The translations under genes and the position numbers were made by a program. Below the pieces are notes generated by a model. The model did no database searches. It saw only the letters and a list, made by a program, of their open reading frames with translations, and had not been told where the DNA came from. Below, piece after piece: positions 22,596-63,953 of a DNA stretch of 64,000 nt (the first letter of the stretch is position 1; each line of letters opens with the position of its first letter). Source of the DNA: Planctomycetota bacterium (lineage in GTDB: Bacteria > Planctomycetota > UBA11346); NCBI GenBank assembly GCA_038213805.1, contig JBBQSO010000016.1:11571-75570 (forward strand), read 5' to 3'.

Positions 22596-22624
22596 TTGGA
22601 CATCACGCCCGGCGCCCCTATCCT
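22596..22624 (+). promoter_or_regulatory. Candidate sigma70-type promoter for the pilin-like gene
   Basis: TTGGAC-17 nt-TATCCT about 57 nt upstream of ATG 22681. Confidence 0.35.
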
Positions 22625-22680
22625 CCACCCCAGGCCCGGCCCTTTCCGTCCATCGACCCATCCCCCTGCCGCGAAACCTG

Positions 22681-24039: not shown

Positions 24040-27000
24040 TTCCCGCCCGCAGATCGCCGCGCTCCGGCGCCGCTTTGATCATCGCCCTCGTCATTCTCGC
24101 AGCGCTGATGCTGCTCGGCCTGCCGTTCATCTTCAGCCAGTCCGGCGCACTCGCCGGCACGCGCTCGTTCGCACGTGGACAGACCGCGCAGGTTGGGATG
24201 GGCGCGGCCGAGAATTCGGGGATCGGCCTGGCCGGCAATGCGTCCGCACGGCACCTGCTCGCCGGCGTGAGCGTCGGTTTGACCAAGGATCAGGAGTGGA
24301 GCCGCATCGACTGGGACCTGGACACCCTCTACGCCGCCGGGGTCGGCTCGGTGAATCCGATCCGCTGGTCGTACTTCGACGGGCGCCGCTATCAGATCGA
24401 CTGGCTGAGCACGCCGCTCGCGTCCGCCGCCCCGCTGCCCGACCAGCTCCGCCGCGATCTGCTGGGACTGACCATCGAGGACGAGGGCGGGAAGCTCGAC
24501 CCAAACCACTTGGACGCCGCGGGCTGGCAGCGACTGCTCGCTGCGCCAACCGTCGGCATCGCCGATCCCAACGATCCGGCCGACCATGACACGTACGGCC
24601 AACTCGCCAAGGCGCTCGCCAACCTGCGCTTCACACTGCCGGGTGGTCGCATCACCGATCTCGACCAGCTGCTCGCCGCCGTCCCGTCGGGCACCGGACG
24701 TCAGCACCTGACCAAGGCTGAGCTCGCCCACGTGCGTCCGCACCTCACCCTGTCCAGCCTCGCGCAGGCGCGGGCCGGGCTGATCGATCTCGGCACGGTG
24801 GTGCTGGTGGACGCCCCACCGCTAACCGCGACGGTCGTGCCCTACCTGGACAGCGTGGCGCCGTCAAAGCAGCTCGCCTTCCCGGTGACCCCCGACCTGA
24901 TCGGCGCTGGAACTGTGCTGGTCTCGCAGGTCGGCACCGCGACCGCGCAGCCCAGCCGCCTGACCAGCGGGGACCTGGCTTCGAACATCACCGTCACCGC
25001 GCCCAACACCGTGGTCCTGACGCCCCTGGCCGCCAACGCCGCGCTCGCCATCGAGGCGCCGCCGGCGGTGAACATCCACGAGGCGACGACGACCACGCTC
25101 GCCACCCTGCGGCTCGTACCCATCTCGATGCCCGCACTGACCATGCCGCTCCCGGCGATGGCCTTGGACACGGTCGGCACGCTGCACAGCGTCATCGCCC
25201 AGGTCGATGCGCGAGCGGGGACGGGACCGCAGCTGTCCGCATTTGATCTGCTCGATCCGCTGGCCGACTACGACGAGATCACCACGGGAACGCTCAGCCA
25301 AAGCACTATTGGCGACGGTGTCACGCCCGCGAACGACACCGATGGCACGCCGCTGGTCGTTCAGGGCGCCATCTACTTGCACGTGCAGGGCGCTGACTTC
25401 GCCCGTGTGCCGCGCACCGGCTACGCGCGTGTCCACGGCACCTACGCCGGTAGCCACCTGCCGGCGATCGGAGGAAATCCTGCGACGCCTGCGCAGACGG
25501 GACCGGACGAGTTCATCTCCTATTCGCTCTCGCCCACCACCGCGGCCGCCACTGACCTCACTGACGTCAGCATCGTGGCATTGCGCCCGGGCGTGGCGGC
25601 GGTCTCGACGAATTTCCGCGTGGAACCGGGGAATCCTCCGGTCATCACCTTCATCTCGCCCCACGAGCAGGCGCCGGTCGCGATCGCCTCAGCCGGTGTC
25701 GTGACCATCGACAGCTCCGCGACCGTGACCGACGCCCAAGGCAAGCCCGACGCCAAACGCGGCCGGCGCATCGTGGCCCAGGCGGTCCCGCAGGAGGCGC
25801 CGCTGGAAACGCGCTGGACCACCCAGAGCCAGATCCAGGCGCTGCTCGCCAGCCGCCAGGGCAGCCTGATGACGTCCTTCCCGGTTGCGGTGCAGCGGGT
25901 CACCGACCTGACCACCAGCGACGTGGCGATCGCGCCCACTGGCGAACTGCAGACCAGCGTCGGGCCGCCGGTGGTCGGTGAGGACCAGCTTACCGGGCTC
26001 AAGCCCGCGATCCTGCCCGCTCCGCATGGCAGCCAGCTGGACCTGCTCTGGTCGCGCACCTTTGCGGGCACCACCAACAACCCCAGCGTGAACGCGTTCT
26101 GGCAGAACGGCCTCTCACCTGGATTGCCCGCGAAGAATCCGCTGCAGACGCTTGACCACGTGATGTCGCCGGAAGGCCTGCGCATGGGCATCGGCGACAG
26201 CGCCCTGGCCTATCCGAATCCGCTCGGCACCAACGGCTTCATCCCCTTCGGCAATGAACCGAGCTCCGGCAGCGTGTCGACGGTGGCGCCGTTCCACTTC
26301 GCCATCTGGATCAAGCCGACGATTCCCTTGAGTGGCGTGGTCACGGTCTTCGACCTGCGCATGCCTGCGGCGAGTGCTGGGTTGCCGCTGTTCGTAGCGC
26401 CCTTCGATGCCCCAGTTGCCGACTTCCCCTCGCGGCCGAGCATTGATGTGCAGAACCGCGTCTCGCTGCGCTACCTCGCCGACCTGAAACAATTCTCGCT
26501 GCTGGTCAACAACGGCGCGATCGAGCACACCACCGATCACGGGCCGAAGATCCTGGCCGACGATTTCACCGAGCCTTTCTACGATCCGCAGAGCGGGCCC
26601 ACCTCGGCCAGCGCCGATGCCCAGGCCTTGGCGCCCGGGCGGGGCAACCAGACCATCAAGCTGCGCTATGCGATGGGCGCCAATGGGCTGCAGCCCAATG
26701 TCTGGCATCTGGTGCAAGGTGTGATCTGCGGAAATCTGCCGGGGGGCATGGCGTTGATGGTCGATGGCGTGGTCGGACGGGAAGCGATCCTGGAATCGCC
26801 GGTCGACCTCAGCGCCATGGGCGACCACATCACGCTGCCGAGCATGCGGCTGCTGACCGCGCTCCCTCTGAAGACCACCGCGGCGGTTCAGTCGAACGCG
26901 AAGAACGCGCTGCTGGCGGGTGATATCGATCTCGATGCGTGCACCTCCGCCCTCACCCCCAGCGGCGGCCTCGACCATGGCGGTGCCGCGGTCCACGACC

Positions 27001-41601: not shown

Positions 41602-43146
41602 ATGACTGGCGCCTTCCGGCCCTGGGACTGGGCGGTGTTCGCTGGTTATTTCGCCTTCCTGGTCGGCACCGGCGTGCTGCTGGCGCGGCGGCCCGGCGAC
41701 GCCAAGGACTACTTCATCGGGCACCGCCAGATGCCCTCTTGGGCGGTGGCGGTGTCGGTGTTGGCCTCGGCGTTGTCGGTGGCGACCTATCTGGGGGCGC
41801 CGCAGGAGGCATACGCGGGCGATCTGACTTACCTGCTCGCCAACGTCGGCACCATGCTCGCCGTGGTGGTAGTGGCCTATGCCTTCATCCCGGCTTTCTA
41901 CCGCCACGAGGTGGTGACGGTCTACCAGCTGCTGGGCGTGCGTTTCGGACCGCGCGCCGCGCAGGCGGCGAGCTGGACTTTCCTGGTCGGGCGCGCCCTG
42001 GCGAGCGGTGCGCGGCTGTTCATGGCGGCGATCCCGGCGGGCATGATCCTGACCGGGGACGGCGACGCTGTCGCGCCGGTGGTGGCCGGGATTCTGATCC
42101 TGACCGCGATCGGCATCGCCTACACCCTGGTCGGCGGCATCAGCAGCATCATCTGGACCGACGTCATCCAATTCCTGATCATGATCGGTGCGGTGGTCGC
42201 CGCGTTGGTGCTGCTGTGGTCGCGCATCCCGGCGGCGCCCGCCGACATCTGGCACGCGCTGTCCGAGCCGCGCACGGACGGCCCCGGCAAGCTCGCGCTG
42301 GTGTCGCTGTCGCTGGACCCGACGCGGGCCAACACGCTGTGGACCGCCCTCGGCGGCTACCTGCTGCTCAACCTCGCGGTCTACGGCACCGACCAGGATC
42401 TGGCGCAGCGCATGCTCACGTGCCGCAATGCGGTAGCGGGGGGACGTGCGGCCCTCGCCGCGATCGTGATGAACATTCCGGTGGTGCTGCTGTTCCTGGG
42501 CCTGGGTCTGCTGCTGTGGGTGTTCTACCAGCGGCCGGATCTGATGGGCGGGGCGGTACCAGCCTACCCCGTCCCGGGAGGGCAGAAGGTTTTCCTCACC
42601 TTCATCCTGCACGAGATGCCGCAGGGCATGGCCGGACTGATGATGGCGGGGCTGTTCGCGATCGCGCTGACCAGTCTGCTGTCGGCGCTCAATGCCATGG
42701 CTTCGGCCTTCATCACCGACTGCTATCGTGGGGCGGCGCCCGGTCGCGATGAGCGCCATTACCTGACGGCCAGCCGCTGGGCGGTTGCGGGTGCCGGCGT
42801 GGTGGTCGCCCTGGTGGCGATCGGCTGCATGGCCTGGGAGCGCCACAGCCACATGAACCTGCTGGCGCTCGCCTTCAGCGTCATGGTGCTGGCCTGTTCG
42901 GGGCTGCTCGGAGTGTTCCTGACGGCGCTGTTCACCCGGCGTGGCAATCAGACCAGCGCCATCGCTGCGCTGGTGATGGGCTTCGCGACCTGCGCAGCCC
43001 TGCAGTGGGCACCCTACGCGGAATTTTTCTGGCCGGGTGGTGGGCAGCTCGCCTGGCCGTGGATCATGGTGATCGGCACCGCGGCCGCCTTCGCCACCTG
43101 CTGCGCAGGCACCCCTTCCGCACGCACTCGTGAGACCAGACTGTGA
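41602..43146 (+). CDS. Sodium:solute symporter (SSS) family transporter
   Basis: DYFIGHRQMP, SALSVATYLGAP, GGISSIIWTDVIQF, GTDQDLAQRML; multi-TM. Confidence 0.93.
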   Translation: MTGAFRPWDWAVFAGYFAFLVGTGVLLARRPGDAKDYFIGHRQMPSWAVAVSVLASALSVATYLGAPQEAYAGDLTYLLANVGTMLAVVVVAYAFIPAFYRHEVVTVYQLLGVRFGPRAAQAASWTFLVGRALASGARLFMAAIPAGMILTGDGDAVAPVVAGILILTAIGIAYTLVGGISSIIWTDVIQFLIMIGAVVAALVLLWSRIPAAPADIWHALSEPRTDGPGKLALVSLSLDPTRANTLWTALGGYLLLNLAVYGTDQDLAQRMLTCRNAVAGGRAALAAIVMNIPVVLLFLGLGLLLWVFYQRPDLMGGAVPAYPVPGGQKVFLTFILHEMPQGMAGLMMAGLFAIALTSLLSALNAMASAFITDCYRGAAPGRDERHYLTASRWAVAGAGVVVALVAIGCMAWERHSHMNLLALAFSVMVLACSGLLGVFLTALFTRRGNQTSAIAALVMGFATCAALQWAPYAEFFWPGGGQLAWPWIMVIGTAAAFATCCAGTPSARTRETRL

Positions 43147-45047
43147 ACGACCTCCAGCATCTGCCGCCTCTGCTGCTGCCGGCTCCGCGCCTGCTCGTCG
43201 ACTCCCGCGACAGCGCCGGCTGGCTGACCGTGCCGGCGACGGTGCGCATCAACGGGTACCCGCCGTACATCGCGCTGGCCACGGCGATCCTCGCCGACCA
43301 CCTCCACCTGGCAGAGTCCACCCTCGCCGACTTCGGGCCGCTGTGCGTCGACGGGGATCCGCCCGAGCCCGCGCTCAGCGGCGGCGAGGCCTACCGCCTG
43401 CGCATCGACGCGCGGCGCATCCACCTCGCTGCGCACAGCGAGGCCGGCATGCGTCATGGGCTGCGTACGCTGGCGCAACTGATCATCCAGTACGGCCGCC
43501 GCCGCCTGCCGTGCGTGCTGATCGAAGATGCACCGGTATTCGCGGTGCGCGGCGTGATGCTGGACGTCAGCCGCGACCGCGTGCCGACCATGGCGCACCT
43601 GCTCGAGACCGTCGATCAGCTCGCCAGGTGGAAGATCAACCACCTCCAGCTTTATACTGAGCACACCTTCGCCTACGCTGGCCACGAGGAGGTGTGGCGT
43701 GGCGCCTCGCCGTTGACCGCGGATGAGATGCTCACCCTCGACGTGCACTGCCGCGCGCACGGCATCGAGTTGGCCGCGAACCAGAACTGCTTCGGCCACC
43801 TGGCCGCGTGGCTGAAGCATCCGCGCTACGCGCCGCTGGGTGAGATCGCCCCGGACGCGGAGTGGGACTTCAACGGTCTGGTGATGCGACGCGGTCCGTT
43901 CAGCCTGTGCCCGAGTGACCCGCGCGCGCTGGCGCTGGTCGAGGATCTGCTCGACCAGCTGCTGCCGACCGTCGCTGGGCCGCTGGTGAACATCGGTTGC
44001 GACGAGACCTTCGACGTCGGGCAGGGCCGTTCCAAGGACGCCGTCGCCAGCCGCGGGCGCGCTGCCGTCTATCTGGAATTCGTGCGCGCGATCTGCGCCG
44101 TGGTGCGCCGCCACGGCAAGCGCCCGATGTTCTGGGCCGACATCGCGCTGGAACACCCCGAGGCGCTCGCCGAGCTGCCCGCGGACCTCATCGGCCTGGC
44201 CTGGGGCTATGAGCCCGATGCGCCCTTCGCACGCTGGTGCCAGCAGCTGCGTGCGGCCGGGCGCGAGGTGTGGGTATGCCCCGGCACCTCGTGCTGGCGC
44301 GCGATCACCGGCCGCACCCGCGAGCGGCGCGCCAATCTGCTCGCCGCCGCGCGTGACGGCGCGGCGCACGGCGCGACCGGCTATCTCGCTACCGCCTGGG
44401 GTGACGTCGGCCACCGTCAGCAATGGCCGATCACCCTGCACGCCCTCGCCGAAGCAGCGCACCGCGCGTGGAGCGGCAGTGCGGAGTACGATGTCCGCGC
44501 CGGGTCGCTGCACGCTTTTTCCGACCGTACCCTGATGGTCGGCGCCTGGCTCGACGAGCTCGGCGATGTCGACGCCGGCCTGCGCGCCATCGCCGGCAAG
44601 CCGCAGGCCGACGGCCAGCCCCGCGCGCTGCGCAACGCCAGCGCGCTCTTCACCGACACCCAGAAGCCGCTCGCGGAACCCTGGAAGGGCTCGCGCGGCG
44701 ACTGGGAAGAGGTCGCCGAGCGCCTCGAGGGCCTGGCCGCACGCCAGCCCCAGCTGCCCTCGAACCTGCACAACCAGGAGCTGCTGTTCTCCTGCCTCGA
44801 TGCCAGCTTCGCCGCAACCCGCGCCTTCCTGCGGCGCTTCTCGCAACCGGTGATGATGGAAGGACTGCTGCCCGAGCTGCGCCTGTTCGCCGAGGCCGAC
44901 CTGCCCCTCTACCGTTACCTGTGGCGCCAACGTTCCCGTCCCGGCGGCCTGGCCGCGAGCTGCGCGCATTACCGCGCCCTGCTCACCGAACTCGGCCCGC
45001 TCGACGAGCTCGACCTGCTCGATGCGGTGGACGACCCGGCGAGCTGA
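43143..45047 (+). CDS. Glycoside hydrolase family 20 (beta-N-acetylhexosaminidase)
   Basis: IEDAP..RGVMLDVSR, KINHLQLY, FGHL, NIGCDE catalytic pair, MFWAD. No signal peptide seen. Confidence 0.9.
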   Translation: MNDLQHLPPLLLPAPRLLVDSRDSAGWLTVPATVRINGYPPYIALATAILADHLHLAESTLADFGPLCVDGDPPEPALSGGEAYRLRIDARRIHLAAHSEAGMRHGLRTLAQLIIQYGRRRLPCVLIEDAPVFAVRGVMLDVSRDRVPTMAHLLETVDQLARWKINHLQLYTEHTFAYAGHEEVWRGASPLTADEMLTLDVHCRAHGIELAANQNCFGHLAAWLKHPRYAPLGEIAPDAEWDFNGLVMRRGPFSLCPSDPRALALVEDLLDQLLPTVAGPLVNIGCDETFDVGQGRSKDAVASRGRAAVYLEFVRAICAVVRRHGKRPMFWADIALEHPEALAELPADLIGLAWGYEPDAPFARWCQQLRAAGREVWVCPGTSCWRAITGRTRERRANLLAAARDGAAHGATGYLATAWGDVGHRQQWPITLHALAEAAHRAWSGSAEYDVRAGSLHAFSDRTLMVGAWLDELGDVDAGLRAIAGKPQADGQPRALRNASALFTDTQKPLAEPWKGSRGDWEEVAERLEGLAARQPQLPSNLHNQELLFSCLDASFAATRAFLRRFSQPVMMEGLLPELRLFAEADLPLYRYLWRQRSRPGGLAASCAHYRALLTELGPLDELDLLDAVDDPAS

Positions 45048-45069
45048 CCCCCTCCCACCGGGATCCCAC

Positions 45070-45112
45070 CTTCGAGCTTCGAGCTTCGAGTCTCGCAGCT
45101 CGCAGCTCGCAA
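45070..45112. repeat. Compound heptamer array (CTTCGAG) x3 plus (CTCGCAG/A) x3
   Basis: Read directly from the GH20-anmK intergenic region. Confidence 0.88.
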
Positions 45113-45284
45113 CTCGGCGCTGACGCCTCGCTTCCAGACTCTCGCGCCGAGCGGCCCCAGCCTCGCGCCTGGCTCTTCGCGCCGCGCGCGACCCCACAAA
45201 CGCCCATTCCCCCCGCACAATCCCCCCCTAAGCCTTCCCCCCACGCCACCGCGCGGCCTGCGCCCCGGCCTGCCCAGGAATCCC

Positions 45285-46454
45285 ATGCCCCGCGCCTCGT
45301 TCACCCAGCTCTCGAAGCCGTCCGACACATTCGACCGCGCCAACCCCGAGCATGCCCGCCAGACCCGTTCCGCACGCCGCCACCACGGCACGCGCTACGT
45401 CGTCGGCTGCATGACCGGCACCAGCATCGACGCGCTCGACGGCGCCCTGGTGGCGATCGATGGCACCGGGATGGAGATGCGCCTTGAGCTGCTCGGCCAG
45501 GTGACGTGGCCGCTCGGCGCCCTGGCCGAGCCGCTGCGCCGTCTCGCCAACCAGGAACCGATGAGCGCACGCGACATCGCCACCCTGGCCCGCGACTTCG
45601 CCCTGCTGCACTGCGACGCCATCGACGAGCTGAAGGGGCGCAGCGAGCTGAGCCTGATCGCGGTGCACGGGCAGACCGTGTTCCATGCCCCGCCGGTGAG
45701 CTGGCAGCTGTTCAATCCCGCGCCGCTGGCGGCGCGCTTCAAAGTGCCGGTGGTCTCTGATCTGCGCGGCGCCGATCTCGCCGCCGGCGGCGAGGGCGCG
45801 CCGATCACGCCGCTCGCCGACTATCTGATCTTCCGCCACCCGCGCGAGCGCCGCACCATCGTCAACCTCGGCGGCTTCTGCAACATCACCCGCCTGCCCG
45901 CAGGCGAGGGCCTCAGCGGCCTGACCGGCGCGGATATCTGCGCCTGCAACCAGGTGCTTGATGCAATCGCGCGGCGCGTGCTGGACTGTTCCTACGACCG
46001 CGATGGGCAGCGCGCGCTGGCGGGCACCGCCAAGACCCGGCCCGCGGCGGCGCTCGCGACCATGCTTGAGGCGCAGGCCAAGTCCAAGCGCAGCCTGGGC
46101 ACCGGCGATGAGCTCGGCGCGTGGATCGACAAGCACCAGGTGCTGTCGCCCGAAGATCTCGCGCGCACCGCTTGCGCGGCCATCGCCCAGATCATCGTCC
46201 GCCACATCGGCCAGGCCGACCGCATCATCCTGGCCGGCGGCGGCATCCGCAACCGCGCCCTGCTCACCGAGCTCAGGAACCAGACGCACATCCCGCTCAT
46301 CATCAGCGACGAGGCCAATGTGCCCGCCTCGCTGCGCGAGGCCATGGCCATCGCCGTGCTCGGCGCGCTCTGCCAGGACCGCGTCCCGATCACCATCCCG
46401 CGCATCACCGGGGTCGAGCGGGCGCCGGTGGCGGGGATGTGGGTGCTGCCTTAA
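45285..46454 (+). CDS. anmK: Anhydro-N-acetylmuramic acid kinase
   Basis: GCMTGTSID, HGQTVFH, DLAAGGEGAP, NLGG..NIT, GGGIRN, REAMAIA. Confidence 0.93.
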   Translation: MPRASFTQLSKPSDTFDRANPEHARQTRSARRHHGTRYVVGCMTGTSIDALDGALVAIDGTGMEMRLELLGQVTWPLGALAEPLRRLANQEPMSARDIATLARDFALLHCDAIDELKGRSELSLIAVHGQTVFHAPPVSWQLFNPAPLAARFKVPVVSDLRGADLAAGGEGAPITPLADYLIFRHPRERRTIVNLGGFCNITRLPAGEGLSGLTGADICACNQVLDAIARRVLDCSYDRDGQRALAGTAKTRPAAALATMLEAQAKSKRSLGTGDELGAWIDKHQVLSPEDLARTACAAIAQIIVRHIGQADRIILAGGGIRNRALLTELRNQTHIPLIISDEANVPASLREAMAIAVLGALCQDRVPITIPRITGVERAPVAGMWVLP

Positions 46455-46463
46455 AACAGGAGG

Positions 46464-46604
46464 CCCTAGACCCTAGACCCTAGACCCTAGACCCTAGACC
46501 CTAGACCCTAGGTAGTGGCTCGGGAGTCTTTGACTGAGATCATAGGTCCACCTCATTTTCGCACAGCGATCTTCGCAAAACGATCTAGGGTCTAGGGCAT
46601 AGGT
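46464..46604. repeat. Heptamer array (CCCTAGA) x6 plus a partial unit, with inverted (TCTAGGG) x2 arm
   Basis: Left arm 46464-46511; right arm 46584-46597 followed by degenerate cataggt. Confidence 0.93.
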
Positions 46605-46662
46605 TCTGGGCCCTCAGAGTCGCGCAGGCGATGGACGAACCCCTCAAGCCGCCGATCATGGG

Positions 46663-47580
46663 ATGTCCATGGAACTCCCCCCCGACCGCTCCCACATCCT
46701 GACCGAGGCCCGCAATACGGGCAGCACCGGACTGCACCGGTTGTCGGCGGCGGAGTGCGTGCGGCTGATGAACCGCGAGAACGCGGCGGTGCTGGCGGCG
46801 ATGGAGCAGGCCGAGGCCGCTCTGACAGCGTTCATCACCGCCGCGGAGCCGGGCTTCATCGCCGGCGGGCGGCTGATCTACCTGGGCGCGGGCACCTCGG
46901 GACGGCTCGGCGTGCTCGACGCGTCAGAGGCGCCACCGACCTTCCAGGTCGAACCGGGGCGCGTGGTCGGAATCATCGCTGGCGGCGACGCGTCGCTGCG
47001 CCGTTCCAGCGAGAGCCGCGAGGACGAGATCCAGGGCGCGTGGGACGAGCTCACTGCGCTACACCTGGGCCGCCACGACACGGTCATCGGCATCGCGGCC
47101 GGTGGCACCACGCCGTATGCACTCGGCGCCCTGACCTTCGCCAAGACTCAGGCTGCAGAGGCGCCGCTGACCGCCTTCATCTCTTGCACGCCGGTAGTGC
47201 GTCCGGAGCACGCCGACCATCTCATCGTGCTGGCCAGTGGTCCCGAGGTGCTGACCGGTTCGACCCGGCTCAAGGCGGGGACGGTCACCAAGCTCGCGCT
47301 CAACACCATCTCGACCACGCTGATGGTGCGCGCCGGCAAGGCCTACGGCAACCTGATGGTCGATGTGCGCGCGACCAACGCCAAGCTGCGCGACCGCGCC
47401 GCGCGCATCGTCGCCGAACTGACCGGTCGCGACCGCGCCGCCGCCTTCGCCCTGCTCGACGCCGCCGGCGGGACCGTGAAGACAGCGGTGGTCATGGCCC
47501 GCTGCGCCCTCGACCGTCCCAGCGCCGAAGCCCGCCTCGCCGCCCACGCCGGCCGGCTCGATCGCGTGCTGGACGGCTGA
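46663..47580 (+). CDS. murQ: N-acetylmuramic acid 6-phosphate etherase
   Basis: GAGTSGRLGVLDASE.PPTF, GPEVLTGSTRLKAGT, YGNLMVDVRATNAKL. Confidence 0.96.
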   Translation: MSMELPPDRSHILTEARNTGSTGLHRLSAAECVRLMNRENAAVLAAMEQAEAALTAFITAAEPGFIAGGRLIYLGAGTSGRLGVLDASEAPPTFQVEPGRVVGIIAGGDASLRRSSESREDEIQGAWDELTALHLGRHDTVIGIAAGGTTPYALGALTFAKTQAAEAPLTAFISCTPVVRPEHADHLIVLASGPEVLTGSTRLKAGTVTKLALNTISTTLMVRAGKAYGNLMVDVRATNAKLRDRAARIVAELTGRDRAAAFALLDAAGGTVKTAVVMARCALDRPSAEARLAAHAGRLDRVLDG

Positions 47581-56054: not shown

Positions 56055-59000
56055 TCACCGCACAGGTCCGACCTCCGCCACGCGTCCGGTCAGGACATCG
56101 CGCACCCGGACGCGCAGACCCTGCCCATCCTCATCCGCCAACGGCAGGCTGAGCGTGCCGCGCCCATCGGCGCCGCTGAGCGCGTTGCGCACGAGGTGGC
56201 GCAGCGGCGCGCCGGCCGCATCCAGCACCTCGATGTGTACCACGTGCGGGGCGAAGGCCGTGACCGGCGCGTGCAGCTGCCAGGCGATGCGCAGGTCGCC
56301 GTCGGCGATCGCCGCGGTGACCGTGAACCCGGTACTGGCGTAGGGCAGCAGCGCGAGTGGATGGCCCTCGCCGGCGCGCATGGGCACGCTGATCACCTGA
56401 CCATCGCCGCTCAACACTGCACCGCTGCGGCAGTCGATGCAGGTCACTGCGCCAAAGCCGGACAGATCCACGCGCACGCTCTCGACCTCGGCGCCGGCGG
56501 TGGCGTCCTTCTCCTGATGGGCGACGCCGTCGGCGCCGACCACCTCGTGCATGCCGATGGGCGCGCGCAGCAGGGTGAGCAGATATGCCGGCACGGTTCC
56601 GGACAGGGCGTGCACGACCGCGGTGGTGCCGGGGCCAACGGTGAGCGGCACCTGGGGCTTCGCCCCGGCCTTGGCCAGCGCTGCTCGCAAGTCCCCCTTC
56701 ACTGCCGCGAAACGGGTCAGGCGCTGGGCCAGCGCCGGCGCCAGCGGCACTGGCCGCAGGAACTCATCGAGCTCGGGTTCGTCCGTGACCAGCGCCATAC
56801 CACCATGGTCGAGCAGCGCGGCGATCGCCGGCAGAACCGCCACGCCACCGGGCCCTGCACCGCGGCCGACGGCCAGCGTCATGGGCAAGGCGAGCACGCG
56901 CACTCCGCGCTTCTCAAGCACCCCGGCCGCGACCTCGGCGTCGCTGACCAGGAACGGATCCAGGCCGGCGGCGGTGAGCGCTGCCAGCAGCGTCTCCTCA
57001 GCCTTTTTGAACTCCTCGAAACGGCCGCGCGCCCAGGCGGCGCGCTGACTGGGCGCACTCCACAGTACCGCCACCGGCGAGAACACCCGCGTGGCCTGCT
57101 GGTACTGCATGCCCACCCCGGCGCGCAGCTCGGCGAGCGCCCGCTGGTAGTCGCGGCCAGAACGGCAGAAGGTCAGATCGGGGTCGTGCAGGCTCGGCCA
57201 CCAGAACAGCGCCGCGCCGGCGGCGCCGTCAAGCAGGTCAGACCATAGCTGGTGGGCCACCGACGGGCCGCTGCGGCCGTAGGCGCACCACGGCGTGGCG
57301 CGCAGTTCCGGTCCTCCCCAGCAGTGCCGCTGCAGCTCCTGGTGGCGGCCGCCGTAGCCGCACACCGCGCCCAGGGTGGGCGTGAGCTTGGCCCAGTCGA
57401 TGCCATTGAACACCGCCTGTTCCTGGGTGCCCGAGACGCTCAGGCGCGCCTCCGGATAGCCGGCGTGCACCGCCTCGCCATAGAGGCGGAAGACCCCGGC
57501 CCAGGCATCATCGTTGTGGTCGCGCCAGGCGTTCCACAGGCCGAGGTGGCCGCTGTCCTTGGCCTCCTGGCCGGTCTGAGGACCGACCTGCTCGAAGCTG
57601 GCGAAGGCGGTGCCGAAGGCGGCGTTCAGCGCGGCGATGCTCCCGAACTGCGTCTGCAGATGGGCGCGGAAGGCTGCGACGTTGGCGGGGTGCTCGTCGA
57701 GGTCAAACTCGGTGGTGTAACTGGTCAGCGAGGTCTCGTCCGAGGTGATCAGTGAGAGCGGCGCATACGGGACCATGTCCTTCGCCAGCGCGGTGACGCG
57801 CGCGCGCTCCTTGGCGGCGAATTCGGGATCGGCGAATGACGGCTTGCGCACCAGTGCGCTGCGCTCCTTGTGCTCGCGCCAGATGCGCATCTGCCCCTCG
57901 AGATCGTCGACATGCAGACCGTTGGCGAAGCCGACCACCTGCAGGCGCATGCCACCGCGCAGCAGCCGCCGCCACTCGTCGGGATCGCCCGGACTGGCGG
58001 TATTGCCGGTCAGGCCGAACTCGCGCATGCGCGCCATCTCGAGATCGGCGAGGAAGGGCAGGCCACGCTCGTCCCAGGTGAAGACCTCGTAGTCGTTCCA
58101 GCGCGGCGTCGGCGTGACCACCACCTCGGCCCGTCCCTCAGCGATCAGACGGCCATCGCGACGCGCCTGCAGGCGCACCAGCGCCACCGCTTGGCGCACG
58201 CGCGCGGTCGGCAGGGTCACGGTGCCGGTCGCAGCCGTGACCGGGACGGTGGCGAGCGTACGCCAACGGCCGTCGCCGAGTTCACCGAGCACCGCGCTCC
58301 AGGTCGCGCCCGCAGATTTTTCCGGGGCGGCGAAGGTCAGCGTGATCGACGTCCCCGGCATGACCGACACCGGCGCCTGCACCGGGAAGCGCAGGAAGGC
58401 CGGATCCGGATCGGCGAAGCCCAGCTCCCAGTCGGTGACCGCGCCGGCCGCGTCCTTCCACTGCCGCACGCTGTACCAGGGATCTGCGTCGTCGCCCTTC
58501 ACGGCCAGGACCTGCGGCTCGCCCTGGCGGCTGAGCGGCCGGTTGCCGGCCCAGGCCGCGGCGCGCGCCAGCAGCGCGTACCACGCCTCCCAGTAGCGGT
58601 GCTCCGGGCGGGCCACGAAGTCGTCGGGCACCGCCATATAGGGCGTCAGCGATGGGCTGCGCGCGGCGATCGTCACCACCCGACCCTTGCCGACCTGGCG
58701 CACCGCCAGCACCGGGGTGCCATTGGCCAGGGCGATCAGCACCTGCGCGCCAGGCGCGACCACGCAGCGCTGGGTCTCCATCTGCCCGGTGGGCAGGGCG
58801 TCGAGCGGCACACCCGCGGTGAGCGGATGCGCGCCCTGCGCGACCCAGCGCCCGCCGAATTCGCGGCCTTCGCTGGGCGCGTGCATGCCGCCGCCGTCGT
58901 CGGCCCAGTCGCTGGCGCCGTCGATCAGGGCGCTGAGCGCGCGCAGGTCCTCTGGCCAGGGTTGCCCGCGCTCACCGGGGAAAGGATTGATCAGCACCAG

Positions 59001-59960
59001 GCCCTCGCCCTGGTCGCGCACCCGCGCCAGCAGGGCCTGGCGTGCGGCCAGGCCAAAGCGGTTCCAGCCCATCGGCGTCGACATCACCAGGACCTCGAAG
59101 TGCTCCGGGCCAAGCAGCGAGCTCGCCAGGTAGCGCTGCATCAGCGCGCAGTCCAGCCCATGGCCGCGTTCGCCGTACGCGTCGCCAAAGCCCCAGGTGT
59201 TATCCCCCCACTCGCGGTCCCACGACAACACGCTCGGCTGCAGATCGATGCGCTCCATCAACTCGACCACTTCGCGGCCGGTACGCACTCCGGCCAGGGC
59301 GAAGGCGCGCAGCGGCCCACCGGCGAGCCCATGCGCGAACGGCAGGTGCGGCGACGACACTGTCATGGTCGGCTGATGGTCGAGGCGCTCCGCATAGGGG
59401 ATGAATGGCACTTTCTCGGCCTCCATCCTCCCCAACCGAATGTCGTCGAACCACACCGTCAACCCGGCCGGCGGGTGATCGAAGAACAGGGTCATGGAGG
59501 TGACGGCGTGCAGGTCGATGCTCTTGCCGATCGCCGCGACCGGGATCTGCACCCGCGTCCGCCCCGCCGCCACGCGCACCTCGCCGTTGTAGCGCGAGGC
59601 GTAGCCCGCGCTCTTCGCATCGTCAACGCGCACCGCCAAGGTGCGCTCGCTGGTCGACCACACCGAGAACGACAGCGCCTCGTGATGCGACCAATCGCGC
59701 GGCACGCGCGCGCCGTGCAGCGTCAGCGCCGGGTAGTCACCGCTCACCGCCACCATCTTCAGGGCGGTGTCGCGCTCCGTGACCGAACGCGGGCCGACCG
59801 ACAACGTCACGTGGTCGTGGTCCCAATCCACGCCTTGGAGGTCCTCAGGGACTGCGAAGTGTGCCAGGAGCACGCCGCTGTCCGCCTCGGCGGACCAGCT
59901 ACGGATGGAGAACGTGAGGATCGCAAACGCGTACAGGGCGGATGTAAGGACGGTGCGCAT
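56055..59960 (-). CDS. Secreted multidomain glycoside hydrolase, GH42/beta-galactosidase-like
   Basis: Signal peptide, CBM-like N-terminal domain (DWSHHEALSF...WFDDIRL), SDET, FRAHLQTQFGSIAALNAAFGTAFASF, PVAVLWS trimerisation-like domain. Confidence 0.7.
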   Translation of the reverse strand: MRTVLTSALYAFAILTFSIRSWSAEADSGVLLAHFAVPEDLQGVDWDHDHVTLSVGPRSVTERDTALKMVAVSGDYPALTLHGARVPRDWSHHEALSFSVWSTSERTLAVRVDDAKSAGYASRYNGEVRVAAGRTRVQIPVAAIGKSIDLHAVTSMTLFFDHPPAGLTVWFDDIRLGRMEAEKVPFIPYAERLDHQPTMTVSSPHLPFAHGLAGGPLRAFALAGVRTGREVVELMERIDLQPSVLSWDREWGDNTWGFGDAYGERGHGLDCALMQRYLASSLLGPEHFEVLVMSTPMGWNRFGLAARQALLARVRDQGEGLVLINPFPGERGQPWPEDLRALSALIDGASDWADDGGGMHAPSEGREFGGRWVAQGAHPLTAGVPLDALPTGQMETQRCVVAPGAQVLIALANGTPVLAVRQVGKGRVVTIAARSPSLTPYMAVPDDFVARPEHRYWEAWYALLARAAAWAGNRPLSRQGEPQVLAVKGDDADPWYSVRQWKDAAGAVTDWELGFADPDPAFLRFPVQAPVSVMPGTSITLTFAAPEKSAGATWSAVLGELGDGRWRTLATVPVTAATGTVTLPTARVRQAVALVRLQARRDGRLIAEGRAEVVVTPTPRWNDYEVFTWDERGLPFLADLEMARMREFGLTGNTASPGDPDEWRRLLRGGMRLQVVGFANGLHVDDLEGQMRIWREHKERSALVRKPSFADPEFAAKERARVTALAKDMVPYAPLSLITSDETSLTSYTTEFDLDEHPANVAAFRAHLQTQFGSIAALNAAFGTAFASFEQVGPQTGQEAKDSGHLGLWNAWRDHNDDAWAGVFRLYGEAVHAGYPEARLSVSGTQEQAVFNGIDWAKLTPTLGAVCGYGGRHQELQRHCWGGPELRATPWCAYGRSGPSVAHQLWSDLLDGAAGAALFWWPSLHDPDLTFCRSGRDYQRALAELRAGVGMQYQQATRVFSPVAVLWSAPSQRAAWARGRFEEFKKAEETLLAALTAAGLDPFLVSDAEVAAGVLEKRGVRVLALPMTLAVGRGAGPGGVAVLPAIAALLDHGGMALVTDEPELDEFLRPVPLAPALAQRLTRFAAVKGDLRAALAKAGAKPQVPLTVGPGTTAVVHALSGTVPAYLLTLLRAPIGMHEVVGADGVAHQEKDATAGAEVESVRVDLSGFGAVTCIDCRSGAVLSGDGQVISVPMRAGEGHPLALLPYASTGFTVTAAIADGDLRIAWQLHAPVTAFAPHVVHIEVLDAAGAPLRHLVRNALSGADGRGTLSLPLADEDGQGLRVRVRDVLTGRVAEVGPVR

Positions 59961-60124: not shown

Positions 60125-61252
60125 CTACCCAGCCTCGCCCCGCATCAACACCAGCATGTTGTCCCGATGCACTGCCGCCTTGGGCAGCGCATAACCGAGC
60201 GCGTTGCTCGCCGCATCGAGGCGCTTGCCGCAGATCGGTCCGAGCTCCGCCGCGGACAGCGACACCAGTCCGCGCGCGACCTCGTCCCCGGCGGGATCGA
60301 CGATGGCCACCGTGTCGCCGCGTTCGAAGCGTCCGTCGCAGCGCAGGATGCCGGCGGGCAGCAGGCTGCGCCCGCCGCGCATCAGCGCCTGGGCGGCGCC
60401 GGCGTCGACGTGCAGGTGGCCCTTCACGCGGCGTGCGACTGCCAGCCAGCGGCGGCGGCCATCGGCGCGCTCGCCGTGGCCGGGTACGCGCGTGCCGATG
60501 GATTCGCCGGCGACGATGCGCTCGATGACGCGCGCTTCGCGCGCCAGGGCGATGGTGGTGGTCACGGCTGCACCGCTGGCCAGGCGCGCGGCCTCGATCT
60601 TCGAACGCATGCCGCCGCGCCCGCGCGCGCCGGCGCCGCCGGCGGCGGCGACCATGCGCGCGGTGACCAGTGGGATCTCGTCCAGGCGCTTGGCGTCGGG
60701 GTTGGTGCGCGGGTCGGCATCGTAGACGCCGTCGATGTCGGTGAGCAGGATCAGGCGCTCGGCGCCGAGCTGGGTGGCGACCAGGGCCGAAAGCCGGTCG
60801 TTGTCGCCGACGGTCAGCTCCTCGACGGCGACGGTGTCGTTCTCGTTGATCACCGGCACCGCACCGAACTCGAACAACGCCTGAAAGGTGGCGGTGAGGT
60901 TGAGGTAGCGCTCGCGCTCGGTGAAGTCGTCGTAGGTCAGCAGCACCTGCGCAGCGACGAGTCCGTGCGCTGCAAGCGCGACTTCCCAGCGGTGCGCGAG
61001 CGTGGCCTGGCCGATCGCGGCCAGCGCCTGGCGCTCGGGCAGGCCGGGCGGCCGTTCGGCCAGGCCGAGGATGCCGACGCCACTGGCGACCGCGCCGCTC
61101 GACACCAGCACGGGCTGAGCGCCGCCGCGCGCGATCGCCGCGAGCTGCGCCGCGACTGCATCGAGGTAGGGCAGATCGATGCGGCCAGCGCGGTCCACCA
61201 GGCTGTTCGAGCCGATCTTCACCACCACCACGCAGCGCGCGTCAGCGGCCAT
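60125..61252 (-). CDS. proB: Glutamate 5-kinase with PUA domain
   Basis: VVKIGSN, VSSGAV, AAIGQ, PVINENDTV, GDNDRLS, GGMRSK, SLLPAGI, HRDNM. Confidence 0.96.
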   Translation of the reverse strand: MAADARCVVVVKIGSNSLVDRAGRIDLPYLDAVAAQLAAIARGGAQPVLVSSGAVASGVGILGLAERPPGLPERQALAAIGQATLAHRWEVALAAHGLVAAQVLLTYDDFTERERYLNLTATFQALFEFGAVPVINENDTVAVEELTVGDNDRLSALVATQLGAERLILLTDIDGVYDADPRTNPDAKRLDEIPLVTARMVAAAGGAGARGRGGMRSKIEAARLASGAAVTTTIALAREARVIERIVAGESIGTRVPGHGERADGRRRWLAVARRVKGHLHVDAGAAQALMRGGRSLLPAGILRCDGRFERGDTVAIVDPAGDEVARGLVSLSAAELGPICGKRLDAASNALGYALPKAAVHRDNMLVLMRGEAG

Positions 61253-62957
61253 CGCCAGGCTCCTTGTCCGTGGTGCCGGCGTCCAGCTTGCCCGGGCCCT
61301 TGGCCGGAGCTTCTGGAGTGGTCTCGGGCGCTGCCGTAGGTAAGACAGGTGCATCTGCCACAGGTTCGGCCGTAGTTTCAGGCGCCGCAACGGGCGCGTC
61401 GGCCAGGGGTTCGGCCGCAGTCACGGGCGGATCCGCGGGCGGATCGCTCAGGGTATCGGCAGGGACGATCTCATCGCCCAGCGCCTCCTGCGCATGCGAA
61501 CTCTCGTCGTGATCGCGGCCGAAGTGGTGGTCGTCCTCGCTGCGCGACGCCTCCGGCGGCACCTCGCCGGTGATGGCGTGGTGATGCTCCTCGTCGACGT
61601 GGACGTCGTGATGGCCGCTGACGTTCGCAGCCTGGGCCGCGCCGTGGTCGTAGGCACTGCGCGGCACGGTCGCACCCGGCGCATCCCAGGCCGCCGGCGC
61701 GGGCGGTGGGAACTGTTGCGCCGCTGCAGCCACCGGCGCGTGGCGGGCGTTGTACCACATCATCAGGCGGCTGGCGAGCAGACCGCCCTCGAAGAGCATC
61801 TGCAGCGGGATCATCATCACGATCATGCTGGTACCGTCCGGCGGCGTGACCAGCGAGGCGATCACGGTGTTGATCAGAATGACGAACTTGCGCATCTTCG
61901 CGAGCTTGGCCGTGGTGACGAAACCGAGCCGGACGAGGATCATCACCAGCCACGGGATGTCCATCATCAGGCCGAAGCACACCGTCATCATGGTGAACGA
62001 CGCCTGGTAGATGGCCTGCGGCACCATCTGCTCCTTGAGCGTCGGATCGCCCGCCGACCATTCGAGCAGCCACGCGAAGTAATAAGGCAGGCCCCAGAAA
62101 TAGCCGAGCACCGCCCCGGCGTAGAAGAACAGGATGCCGGCGGGCACGAACAGGAAGGCGAGCTGGCGTTCCTTGTGCAGCAGGCCGACGCTGACGAACC
62201 GCCAGATCTGGTAGACCAGGAAGGGGATGGCCACCACCAGCGCCGCGTAGAAGCTGACCGACATCGACACCATCGCGCTCTCGGATAGATTCATGCTGAC
62301 CAGCACGCGTGCAGGATTGCGTGCGGCTCCCGCACCGCTGCCAGCGACGGTGCTGATGATGCCGGTCGCGGCGTCGACCTTGCGGATGCGCTGATTGTTG
62401 GTGTCGGCGATGTAGAGATTGCCGGCGGCGTCGACGCTGACCGCACCCGGGCAATCCAGCTGCGCCTCGATCGCCGGGCCGCCATCGCCGGAGAAGCCGG
62501 CCATGGCTGTGCCCGCCACGGTGGTCACGACGCCAGTGGCCTTGTCGATCTTGCGGATGCGCGAATGGAACTGGTCGGCAATGTACACGTTTCCTGCGCC
62601 ATCGACGGCGAGCGCCGCCGGATTGTTGAGCGCAGCCTCGAGCGCCGGCCCACCGTCGCCCGGCAGCGGCTTGCCGGCCTCCGCCTTCGCTTCGCTGACC
62701 AGCGGCGTGGCATGCACCCTGCCATCGCCCGAATCCAGACCCAGCGCCCGCGCCTGCTCGGGCCCGAGGATGTGGATCGCGTGGATCAGCGGCTGCACGT
62801 AGACGACCTTGAGCTCCTTGTTGTAGGCGAAGCCCGCCAGGAAGCCCACCACCAGCACCGCGATCGGCACCATCAGCCGCTTGCGCAGCTCGTGCAGGTG
62901 GTCGCCGAGGCTCATCGGCATGTCGATCAGGTGCGGCAGCGGGTTCAGGCGGACCAT
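61242..62957 (-). CDS. tatC: Twin-arginine translocase TatC with inserted NHL repeats and long C-terminal tail
   Basis: MSLGDHLHELRKRL, YQIWRFV..GL..KE, LFFYAG, FG...DIP, TPPD..S, PLQMLFE. Two NHL repeats at aa 100-208. Confidence 0.9.
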   Translation of the reverse strand: MVRLNPLPHLIDMPMSLGDHLHELRKRLMVPIAVLVVGFLAGFAYNKELKVVYVQPLIHAIHILGPEQARALGLDSGDGRVHATPLVSEAKAEAGKPLPGDGGPALEAALNNPAALAVDGAGNVYIADQFHSRIRKIDKATGVVTTVAGTAMAGFSGDGGPAIEAQLDCPGAVSVDAAGNLYIADTNNQRIRKVDAATGIISTVAGSGAGAARNPARVLVSMNLSESAMVSMSVSFYAALVVAIPFLVYQIWRFVSVGLLHKERQLAFLFVPAGILFFYAGAVLGYFWGLPYYFAWLLEWSAGDPTLKEQMVPQAIYQASFTMMTVCFGLMMDIPWLVMILVRLGFVTTAKLAKMRKFVILINTVIASLVTPPDGTSMIVMMIPLQMLFEGGLLASRLMMWYNARHAPVAAAAQQFPPPAPAAWDAPGATVPRSAYDHGAAQAANVSGHHDVHVDEEHHHAITGEVPPEASRSEDDHHFGRDHDESSHAQEALGDEIVPADTLSDPPADPPVTAAEPLADAPVAAPETTAEPVADAPVLPTAAPETTPEAPAKGPGKLDAGTTDKEPGDGR

Positions 62958-63032: not shown

Positions 63033-63953
63033 TCACGCCCCCACCGCATGGACGGCCGCCGCCAGCACCCCGGCGCGCGCCGCCACGATCCGGGCCAGGT
63101 CGCGTGCAGCGCCATGCTTCTCGATCAGCCGCACCAGGTGGCTGCCGACGATCACACCGTCGCCGAAACCGGCGGCGAGCGCGGCCTGCTCCGGCGTCGA
63201 GATGCCGAAGCCGATGCATACCGGCGCGTCCGCGACCTTCTTCAGCGCCGCCACCTGCTTTGCCAGGTCGGCAGGCAGGTCGGCGCGTTCGCCGGTGACG
63301 CCAAGACGGCAGACGTAATAGAGGAAGCCGCGGCTCTCGCGCATCAGCATGCGCTTGCGCGCCAGCGGCGTGGTCGGCGCGGACAGGCACACCGTGGCCA
63401 GGCCGGCGGCGCGCATCGTGACCAGGAACTCCGCACCCTCTTCCGGCGGCAGGTCGAGCGGCAGCAACCCGTCGACCCCGGCCGCGACCGCATCGCGCGC
63501 GAAGGCCTCCATGCCGTACGCCAGCACCGGGTTGACGTAGGTGAAGAACAGCAGCGGCACGTTGGTGCGCGCACGGATGCGCTGCACCGCCGCAAGCACC
63601 CCGCGCACGGTGGTCCCGGCCTTCAACGCGCGCTCGCAGGCCGCCTGGTTGGCTGGACCATCCGCCATCGGATCCGAGTACGGGATGCCAAGCTCGATGA
63701 TGTCGACGCCGGCCTCCGCCATGGCCACCACCAGCTCGACGGTGGCGTCAAGGTGTGGGTCGCCGGCGCAGATGTAGGCGATGAAGGCCTTCCGCCCGTG
63801 CGCCCGCAGCTCACTGAACCGTTGCGCGATGCGGTTGGCGGGCGGGGCGGAAGGTGCGTCCGGAAGTCCGGAAGTGCGGAATTCCCGCAGTCCCCTGGGC
63901 ACAGGCCCGCTGGCGCGGCCGGCCGCCGTGGCATCGGTAACGGCTGTCGCCAC
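63033..63953 (-). CDS. trpA: Tryptophan synthase alpha chain (start uncertain)
   Basis: YICAGDP, ELGIPYSDPMADGP, DLPPEE, GFLYYV..GVTGER, GFGISTPEQ, DGVIVGS. Confidence 0.96.
   Translation of the reverse strand: MATAVTDATAAGRASGPVPRGLREFRTSGLPDAPSAPPANRIAQRFSELRAHGRKAFIAYICAGDPHLDATVELVVAMAEAGVDIIELGIPYSDPMADGPANQAACERALKAGTTVRGVLAAVQRIRARTNVPLLFFTYVNPVLAYGMEAFARDAVAAGVDGLLPLDLPPEEGAEFLVTMRAAGLATVCLSAPTTPLARKRMLMRESRGFLYYVCRLGVTGERADLPADLAKQVAALKKVADAPVCIGFGISTPEQAALAAGFGDGVIVGSHLVRLIEKHGAARDLARIVAARAGVLAAAVHAVGA

Follow-up and report, generated by a model that had tools for sequence, protein, structure and literature searches.

Two NHL blades in the first periplasmic loop of a planctomycetal TatC, and a possible propeller shared between three subunits

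What a fragment of an NHL propeller might be doing inside a component of the Tat translocase is the question raised by this locus. The 64-kb window (the whole stretch of DNA that was analysed, 64,000 nucleotides) contains a tatC gene (P0001; 61242..62957, minus strand, stop codon counted) that forms an unbroken frame of 571 amino acids, and within the loop joining TM1 to TM2 on the periplasmic side (P1) this protein carries two NHL blades. A sequence-only reading of the window had suggested that three TatC subunits might pool their blades into one six-bladed ring, and we consider here how well the gene, its relatives and the known Tat structures accord with that suggestion, and which other explanations have to be weighed against it.

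The TatC core and its genomic setting

The TatC core of this protein is complete. The Pfam family PF00902 (TatC) is matched by amino acids 19-384 over the entire profile (1-208 of 208; E 4.5e-45; 154.5 bits against a cut-off of 25.1), the match falling into two stretches spread over 366 residues because the insert splits the domain, while the NCBIfam model TIGR00945 (tatC) is passed narrowly (137.3 bits against a cut-off of 132.7). The N-terminal part, amino acids 14-74 (62736..62918, minus strand), begins in the cytoplasm, where the conserved motif HL-ELR-RL lies, and continues through TM1 into the first P1 helices; AF2 places helices here at 17-44, 46-64 and 66-71, and TM1 aligns to the N. 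salsuginis chain 9e02_E (chain residues 4-74) as well as to 9e03, 4hts and 4b4a. Beyond the insert, amino acids 223-405 (61743..62291, minus strand) supply TM2-TM6 and match TatC chains of known structure, namely 9e02 (query 226-394), 9dzz, 9r91, 4hts and 4b4a, with AF2 helices at 224-256, 261-303, 314-344, 356-370 and 375-406. These five together with 17-44 make up the six transmembrane helices expected of the TatC “glove” fold in the predicted model, for which Foldseek gives a target-normalised TM-score (TMt) of 0.74 to N. salsuginis TatC (9e02/9e07) and of 0.55-0.58 to the E. coli and Aquifex proteins. In an alignment of 19 sequences the cytoplasmic glutamate E263 is invariant and E23 nearly so; going by the motifs in which they lie, we take these to be the counterparts of the glutamates in the signal-peptide binding site of E. 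coli TatC. The remainder of the chain, amino acids 406-571 (61245..61742, minus strand), is a low-complexity cytoplasmic tail with much His, Asp and Pro, for which AF2 predicts no secondary structure (pLDDT about 30); His/Asp-rich tails of differing length are also found on the TatCs of relatives.

The gene lies between trpA (tryptophan synthase alpha; 63033..63953, minus strand; Pfam Trp_syntA, E 8.2e-79) on its upstream side and proB (glutamate 5-kinase; 60125..61252, minus strand; Pfam AA_kinase and PUA) on its downstream side, the last 11 nt of tatC being shared with proB if, as is likely, the latter starts at 61252. Among 24 related loci, trpA is found upstream of tatC in 17 and proB downstream in 21, and the remaining three end within about 220 nt of tatC. 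This trpA-tatC-proB arrangement is conserved in a Planctomycetota clade and occurs also in relatives that have no insert, while the closest relative of the window (L001, a 62-kb contig from a metagenome-assembled genome) has the same neighbours around a TatC-NHL gene of its own; the NHL-bearing gene is the resident tatC of its lineage. Neither tblastn nor a motif scan found a TatA/TatB-like ORF in the 64-kb window, and no significant tatA or tatB match appeared in the related loci.

The insert: blades, relatives and selection

The insert itself corresponds exactly to amino acids 100-208 (62334-62660, minus strand), and both of the repeat sequences that had been singled out from the DNA alone are present letter for letter in an uninterrupted frame. 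The first of them, blade 1 (amino acids 100-156; 62490..62660, minus strand), is recognised by a blade HMM at E 7e-32 and is predicted by AF2 to form four strands (113-118, 124-128, 133-137 and 143-148; block-mean pLDDT 78-91), and blade 2 (amino acids 157-208; 62334..62489, minus strand; blade HMM E 3.2e-32, best Pfam NHL stretch 167-193) likewise forms four (170-175, 181-185, 190-194 and 200-205; block-mean pLDDT 79-94). On the N-terminal side the blades are preceded by a linker of amino acids 75-99 (62661..62735, minus strand) that is predicted to be flexible (pLDDT below 50 at residues 77-94), varies among the TatC-NHL proteins and is absent from insert-free relatives, while on the other side amino acids 209-222 (62292..62333, minus strand) lead back to TM2, whose predicted helix begins at 224, with pLDDT below 50 at residues 208-217. 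Three relatives without the insert (P0122-P0124) join the two halves of TatC by a short loop alone, and in 9e02_E the alignment to our TatC resumes, from TM2 onward, at chain residues 166-331. A domain search returns PF01436 (NHL; 39.1 bits against a cut-off of 20, in two stretches) inside the split PF00902 match, and in addition PF25021 (TEN_NHL; E 3.4e-17, 62.9 bits against a cut-off of 27.1). Pfam, NCBIfam and AF2 thus agree with the sequence-only reading of an otherwise complete TatC that has two NHL blades in its TM1-TM2 loop.

Since there are only two blades per chain, rather than the six in one chain of an NHL propeller, a propeller would be possible only between chains. The two blades are identical at 32 of 57 amino acids and 111 of 171 nucleotides, and must therefore be an old pair; a recent tandem duplication or slip of a single blade was considered and rejected, both on this nucleotide identity (65%) and because the signatures that distinguish one blade from the other are common to all the orthologues.

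The same architecture was found in five distinct proteins (P0001, P0029, P0030, P0104 and P0121) from different contigs and sources. In every one of them the blade HMM finds exactly two blades (E about 1e-28 to 1e-33), whereas in 160 other TatCs it finds none at E ≤ 1 (strays having whole-protein E values of 1.6-9.4), so that the matches in the TatC-NHL proteins are far beyond chance. A blade alignment shows that the blade 1 and blade 2 signatures are each retained across the orthologues. A blade number that varied between homologues would have told against threefold closure; in the event it is constant. As to how widespread the architecture is, the figures rest on 19 proteins, 24 loci and the best 150 of 7352 TatC representatives: NHL blades occur in one of the 24 related species loci, the other 23 being without insert, and in two of the nearest 150 representatives (best 150 of 7352, E ≤ 1e-3). 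A whole-protein search gathered 8000 candidates, mostly multi-blade NHL proteins, with four TatC-NHL entries (the query included) among the 120 matches listed, while a search of the ESM Atlas for look-alikes of amino acids 1-410 gave no usable match. A single origin of the insert fits the tree, with weak support (42/87; 48% of the bootstrap trees).

Other TatCs have also acquired additional material in their periplasmic loops. Among the best 150 of the 7352 representatives there are about 14 further enlarged P1 loops and two or three P2 inserts, in none of which was a Pfam domain found. One relative (P0125) has a different insert at the same P1 site; both MAFFT and hhalign thread this sequence onto the blades, but the blade HMM is blank even at E ≤ 10, and the idea that it might be a decayed NHL pair was accordingly dropped.

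As regards the source of the blades, residues 99-208 match teneurin-like NHL proteins at E 5e-24 per repeat pair, with 52% identity in the Foldseek match, and multi-blade NHL proteins (e.g. P0004, P0025 and P0099) are 61-68% identical across the insert. Bacterial teneurin-like or multi-blade NHL repeat proteins are thus the likely type of donor, although within the 64-kb window a tblastn search for a donor or partner NHL gene gave self-hits only. The belief that no TatC-NHL fusion had been described stands to the extent that neither such a fusion nor any NHL insert was found in literature searches on TatC; it needs qualifying in that TatCs with large periplasmic inserts have been described (PMC13323110), and the supplement of that paper may list further examples.

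Comparison of the window with L001 gives a dN/dS of 0.17 for the insert as a whole, and of 0.14 and 0.16 for blades 1 and 2 respectively; as judged from this one pair of sequences, the insert is under purifying selection. At the amino-acid level it is 79% identical between the two, as against 89% for residues 2-74 and 88% for amino acids 223-405. No decayed or lost blade was seen in any of the five TatC-NHL proteins, and both blades are conserved down to an overall identity of 65% (P0121).

A propeller shared between three subunits, and the alternatives

The predicted two-blade unit superimposes closely on the nvPizza2 chain 4zcn_A in Foldseek (TMt 0.87, rmsd 1.7 Å, 96 columns), on Pizza2 itself (3ww7/3wwb, TMt 0.81-0.82) and on the teneurin-like structure 9ifo (rmsd 1.8 Å, 113 columns), and by sequence it matches the Pizza2 series at E 2.7e-7 to 5.7e-7 (Pizza2-SR, E 4.5e-7). 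It is therefore predicted to have the geometry of neighbouring blades in a six-fold propeller, bearing in mind that the NHL structures from which AF2 learned are all six-bladed and that the six-fold angle between the blades may reflect this training. The alignment also shows that both blades of all five orthologues retain the complete pattern of hydrophobic strand positions typical of blades inside a propeller, as would be expected if both faces of each sheet were buried. Pizza was derived from the PknD sensor domain, and the prefix “nv” stands for “no velcro strand”; a literature search for the publication on the PknD-34/345 fragment structures gave no match. The PDB entries for Pizza2 contain three chains each, and Pizza2 self-assembles as a trimer into a six-blade propeller (PMC7337062). 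Nonetheless, two-blade units need not dictate a six-blade ring.

That three TatC copies are present in the translocase core was part of the sequence-only reading, and it is borne out by PMC13323110 (2026), in which the core is (TatBC)3 with its TatC subunits tightly packed at the periplasmic face, and by the PDB, where there are three TatC chains per entry throughout (9dzz, two entries and six chains; 9e02, four entries and 12 chains; 9e03 and 9r91, three chains each). By analogy with Pizza2 and with the trimeric periplasmic insert of M. xanthus TatC, then, it is plausible that three times two blades make one propeller. The history of such an arrangement might run as follows. A two-blade piece of a multi-blade NHL protein of teneurin type would have been inserted in frame into P1 and subsequently kept by selection, and on the threefold axis, immediately beyond the membrane, the three inserts of one TatC3 complex would come together to form one six-bladed NHL propeller. 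Two linkers, one of about 25 residues and the other of about 14, would tether each pair of blades, and both would leave the ring on the face turned towards the membrane. A six-blade NHL ring is about 45-50 Å wide. Such a ring could clamp the TatC trimer from the periplasmic side and so stabilise or template it, while the face pointing outwards would be left available, possibly for docking, perhaps in a lineage-specific way, e.g. of factors of the Planctomycetota envelope or of substrate maturation. It had been suggested that the ring might be a clamp, a lid or a docking platform; the lid is the part that does not survive, because transport is inferred to take place at the periphery of the core (PMC13323110) and a ring on the axis would not lie over that path, which leaves clamp or platform as the reading. 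Taken as a whole, we would give about an even chance to the proposition that this is a resident, functional TatC with a captured NHL pair kept by selection, three copies of which build a six-blade ring that serves as a periplasmic clamp. The fuller version, that of a natural propeller split three ways and rebuilt on the (TatBC)3 assembly, locking the trimer and offering a docking platform outwards, has in our estimation slightly less than an even chance of being right.

The most substantial competitor to a shared ring is that each TatC simply carries its own flexibly linked two-blade unit, with no ring, which would bind something in the periplasm (part of the cell envelope, perhaps, or a substrate after export, or a maturation factor) or do no more than shield the periplasmic face. 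NHL domains generally mediate interactions, and both linkers are predicted to be flexible (see above); furthermore, the P1 insert of N. salsuginis TatC is described as disordered in the cryo-EM map, albeit with extra density in 2D classes (PMC13323110). Against this, open two-blade sheets would leave bare the hydrophobic faces that every one of the five orthologues has preserved, a constant blade count (five out of five) is more than simple binding would call for, and those two-blade units of NHL type that occur in isolation in the PDB are pieces of oligomeric rings (Pizza2; PMC7337062); on balance we regard independent modules as rather unlikely, but they have to be taken seriously. An appreciably less probable idea is that the blades are a tolerated passenger, P1 being a permissive loop that repeatedly takes inserts and the NHL pair being neutral but seldom lost, since clean loss is rare and misfolding costly. 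The other enlarged P1 and P2 loops without Pfam domains, the different insert at the same site in P0125 and the faster divergence of the insert than of the core would all suit such a passenger, whereas the dN/dS of 0.17 (from the one sequence pair), the blades that AF2 folds confidently and that are nowhere lost or decayed, and the blade-specific signatures that persist even in P0121 would not.

Two further explanations carry much less weight. A separate periplasmic NHL protein might complete the ring and by that means be recruited to the translocase, and as a general point incomplete propellers do need extra blades; multi-blade NHL proteins much like the insert are indeed abundant. Yet tblastn found no other NHL-coding sequence in the 64-kb window, no four-blade partner was identified, and the threefold symmetry of TatC3 offers a simpler solution, so that we consider a mixed propeller of this kind very improbable. 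Lastly, the window comes from a metagenome-type assembly, as does its closest relative, and one might suspect an artefact or a pseudogene. An assembly chimera is all but excluded by the finding of identical in-frame junctions in five distinct sequences whose contigs and sources differ, the 62-kb contig of L001 among them, and with an open frame, two conserved TatC halves and an insert that appears to be under purifying selection any explanation of this sort has a negligible probability.

How the Tat core assembles, and how its trimeric form is maintained, are current questions, the first structures having appeared in 2025-26. If the ring exists, it would provide independent evolutionary evidence, from well outside the proteobacteria, for TatC3 as the working unit; the domain arithmetic would in effect spell out how many subunits the translocase has. 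It would also be the first NHL propeller to be built between the subunits of a protein translocase, a second and unrelated case (after M. xanthus) of selection for extra periplasmic contacts between TatC subunits, and a rare natural instance of a multi-chain propeller, a class represented so far mainly by designed proteins and a few lectins. On the practical side, cryo-EM of small Tat complexes could use the insert as a rigid marker, a ready-made fiducial. Should there prove to be no ring, the locus would still illustrate cleanly how a permissive loop in an essential membrane protein can capture a domain.

Comparison with known systems

The protein described here shares the six-helix core and the full Pfam and NCBIfam matches with canonical TatC (E. 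coli, 9DZZ; Aquifex aeolicus, 4B4A/4HTS), but its P1 is longer by some 140 residues and it ends in a disordered tail of about 165. The teneurin-like and other multi-blade NHL proteins (e.g. PDB 9IFO; P0002-P0120) resemble the insert in having consecutive repeats of 56-57 residues, but they have at least six blades per chain and play no part in a translocase. Pizza2 and nvPizza2 (PDB 3WW7, 3WWB, 4ZCN and 5CHB) consist of two tandem NHL-type blades that are like the insert both in sequence and in fold (TMt 0.81-0.87 and rmsd 1.7-2.8 Å overall, by Foldseek). They are, however, artificial, soluble and perfectly symmetric, with blades of 42 residues and about 30% identity to the insert, whereas the blades in TatC occur naturally, have a length of about 55 residues and a mutual identity of 56%, and are anchored in a membrane protein at either end.

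Among TatCs with periplasmic inserts, that of N. salsuginis (9E02, 9E04, 9E06 and 9E07) is the one that shares the site, its insert of about 100 residues also lying in P1 (TM1 at chain 4-74, TM2 from near 166), and Foldseek aligns our model across the gap. This insert is not NHL, there being no match to our residues 99-208. PMC13323110 gives the complex as (TatBC)3 and reports the disorder of the insert in the cryo-EM map alongside the extra density in 2D classes; as 9E02 is the only solved TatC with a P1 insert, a P1 insert evidently need not become ordered on the axis.

M. xanthus TatC, on which the arrangement proposed for the NHL insert is modelled, provides the other point of comparison: there too a large folded domain interrupts a periplasmic loop of a TatC that is normal in other respects; in our protein such a domain is present in P1, its fold being confidently predicted by AF2. 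The M. xanthus chain matches ours only up to its residue 135, which places its insert in P2 (TM3-TM4) rather than P1. In PMC13323110, which covers the cryo-EM structure of M. xanthus TatBC (9E03) and a crystal structure of the isolated domain (residues 127-303; 9E0S), this insert is found on the threefold axis as a homotrimer that makes extra TatC-TatC contacts. Residues 99-208 of our protein have no match to 9e03, which aligns to the TatC core only (query 15-66 and 223-300), and by sequence the likeness is thus one of analogy and not of membership. The form of the trimer would differ accordingly: in M. xanthus each subunit contributes a whole fold, whereas here each would contribute one third of a single fold.

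A tatC gene carrying two internal NHL blades

The tatC ORF lies at 61242-62957 on the minus strand of the window and, as the sequence-only reading had held, runs as a single unbroken frame (571 codons). All 208 positions of the Pfam TatC profile are matched, spread across residues 19-384 (E 4.5e-45), and the NCBIfam tatC equivalog TIGR00945 is narrowly passed (137.3 bits, 132.7 being needed); on all sequence tests made, the protein is TatC. Inside the TatC match are two NHL repeats (PF01436, 39.1 bits against a cut-off of 20; teneurin-type NHL, PF25021, E 3.4e-17), so that the earlier identification of the repeats as NHL is borne out; the insert (residues 100-208) falls exactly at 62334-62660, where that reading had placed it, and both repeats that it cited are present letter for letter. 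The two blades share 32/57 amino acids and 111/171 nucleotides, and are therefore an old pair, a fresh duplication being excluded.

Protein searches yielded four more TatC-NHL proteins (P0029, P0030, P0104 and P0121), 65-85% identical overall and differing in contig and source, with the alignment free of frame problems at the insert junctions. These counter the concern that the gene might be an assembly chimera: on this evidence the TatC-NHL architecture is no artefact, an explanation to which we attach a negligible probability. By a blade HMM, all five proteins have exactly two blades and 160 other TatCs have none at E <= 1.

Scanning a single genome for each species gave 24 related loci, all titled Planctomycetota, planctomycete, Planctomycetales or Brocadiaceae except L023 (“uncultured bacterium”). 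Downstream of tatC lies proB in 21 of the 24, the remaining three contigs stopping within about 220 nt of tatC, and upstream lies trpA in 17. This order, trpA-tatC-proB, is also that of the window, whose tatC is therefore the resident locus rather than an additional copy; the neighbours are 95-97% identical to those in L001, the closest related locus. No second tatC, tatA or tatB was found within the 64-kb window. The end of tatC overlaps proB, which probably starts with the Met at 61252, by 11 nt (61242-61252), and 75 nt separate the end of trpA from tatC, a layout that suggests co-transcription of the three genes. Beside proB, in L001 as in the window, is a 1301-aa ORF of high GC3 (56055-59960, minus strand; 75% identity across 1300 residues), for which Pfam at E <= 1e-5 gave no match; the same threshold gave none for a 789-aa ORF of high GC3 (17214-19583, minus strand), nor for the 1830-aa ORF that, at 22480-29528 on the plus strand, directly follows a protein of 519 aa bearing the prepilin-type N-terminal methylation motif PF07963. 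At 43143-47580 (plus strand) a GH20 hexosaminidase, AnmK (anhydro-N-acetylmuramic acid kinase) and a SIS-domain MurQ-like protein stand in a row, a run of cell-wall recycling type that fits with turnover of peptidoglycan in this planctomycete.

Distribution and selection of the insert

Only one of the 24 related loci, L001, has the insert; in the rest the TatC halves are joined by a short loop. A search with the C-terminal half gave 7352 TatC representatives, and of the best 150 two (P0030 and P0121) carried NHL. In a TatC-core tree the five NHL-bearing proteins fall together on one branch side, a weakly supported grouping (42/87, 48% of bootstrap trees) that is compatible with a single origin of the insert.

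Among those 150 nearest representatives, about 14 have the TM1-TM2 periplasmic loop (P1) enlarged by 40-190 residues (P0125, P0148, P0176, P0180, P0182, P0188, P0216, P0226, P0231, P0236, P0205, P0230, P0242 and P0276) and two or three (P0196, P0266, perhaps P0248) are split at P2, the TM3-TM4 loop; no Pfam domain was found in these other inserts (150 nearest, P0136-P0281). Fusions also occur there: TatA-TatC (P0233, P0235), TatC-FecR (P0169, P0228) and TatC-LptD_2 (P0265). In the close relative P0125 (437 aa), which lies on a long branch of the tree, the same site in P1 (about residues 70-160) is occupied by another insert, of some 85 residues; alignment programs thread this insert onto the NHL blades, yet the blade HMM gives no match to it even at E <= 10.

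In a single pair, the window against L001, dN/dS is 0.17 for the insert (blade 1 0.14, blade 2 0.16) and 0.45 and 0.23 for the N and C parts of TatC; judged by these values the insert is evidently under purifying selection. In the same comparison dS is uneven, at 0.65 for the insert (62319-62672, minus strand, against 6283-6636 of L001), 0.13 for the N part and 0.28 for the C part, and GC3 is 0.83 in the insert as against 0.99 and 0.93; possible reasons are that codon bias is weaker there or that the insert has exchanged sequence with other NHL genes.

Predicted structure and possible ring closure

The N-terminal 74 residues align with TM1 of solved TatCs, and residues 223-405 with TM2-TM6. 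TatC has an N-in topology with the TM1-TM2 loop periplasmic, so the blades face the periplasm. An AlphaFold2 model (input alignment of 19 sequences) has a core of six long helices and, complete and non-permuted within P1, two four-stranded blades (113-118, 124-128, 133-137 and 143-148; 170-175, 181-185, 190-194 and 200-205) with block-mean pLDDT of 78-94 and an inter-blade angle of six-fold type. The linkers comprise about 25 (75-99) and 14 (209-222) residues, and their stretches 77-94 and 208-217 are of low confidence. The cytoplasmic tail (residues 406-571, about 165 residues; 61245-61742, minus strand) has a high content of His, Asp and Pro and is disordered from residue 410 on in the model (pLDDT about 30); the insert-free relatives P0122-P0124 have HG/HD-repeat tails of differing length, and a function in metal binding or regulation is conceivable.

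The sequence-only reading proposed that three TatCs, each contributing two blades, build one six-blade propeller acting as clamp, lid or docking platform, and we give about even chances to the three inserts of TatC3 closing such a ring on the threefold axis. The entry of the chain into a propeller blade (strand A) and its exit (strand D) lie on the same face, and therefore both tethers of each two-blade unit would be directed to the membrane. The ring could clamp the TatC trimer, as the Myxococcus xanthus domain does, and the outer side of the ring would stay available to a partner. The lid has to be given up: PMC13323110 calls transport through the centre of the Tat core “highly unlikely” and requires the periphery instead, and a ring would then be no lid on the transport path.

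If the blades were instead flexible binding modules that never close, as the disordered P1 insert of N. salsuginis might encourage one to think, their hydrophobic faces would be exposed; both blades of all five orthologues retain the alternation of hydrophobic residues seen in internal blades, which is what burial of both sheet faces would lead one to expect, and this together with the invariant blade count makes the explanation a doubtful one. Still less probable is a passenger tolerated by a permissive loop, for which the other enlarged P1 loops and P2 inserts, and the unrelated insert of P0125 at the same site, might speak; the low dN/dS and the conservation specific to each blade argue against it. 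That another NHL protein supplies the missing blades is very improbable, the window containing no candidate partner.

Comparison with known Tat complexes and propellers

Literature searches found no description of a TatC-NHL fusion, and to that extent the novelty claimed by the sequence-only reading stands; periplasmic inserts in TatC are however already known, including a trimeric one, and an insert forming one third of a single fold would be new. That reading put three TatC copies in each complex, in agreement with PMC13323110 and with PDB entries of three TatC chains each; a TatC3 with touching periplasmic faces is established, and an axial trimeric insert has precedent. The N. salsuginis TatC has its insert in the same P1 loop (TM1 at chain residues 4-74, TM2 from about 166 in the alignment), described as disordered in PMC13323110 (Nat Microbiol 2026), whereas that of M. 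xanthus lies past chain residue 135, in P2; neither is NHL, and the trimerising M. xanthus insert is likened to ours by analogy, without homology.

Unlike a six-blade NHL propeller, the TatC insert does not hold six blades in a single chain. Propellers are “almost always” single-chain, according to PMC6805158, which also describes blocks cut from WD40 propellers that form oligomers of six to nine blades. The insert matches Pizza2 variants in sequence (E about 3e-7 to 6e-7); in predicted fold it matches nvPizza2 (4zcn_A; target-normalised TM-score 0.87, rmsd 1.7 Å, 96 columns), Pizza2 (3ww7/3wwb, 0.81-0.82) and the natural two-blade fragment PknD-34 (8pkq, 0.80). Closure of a ring by 2 + 2 + 2 NHL-type blades has an established precedent.
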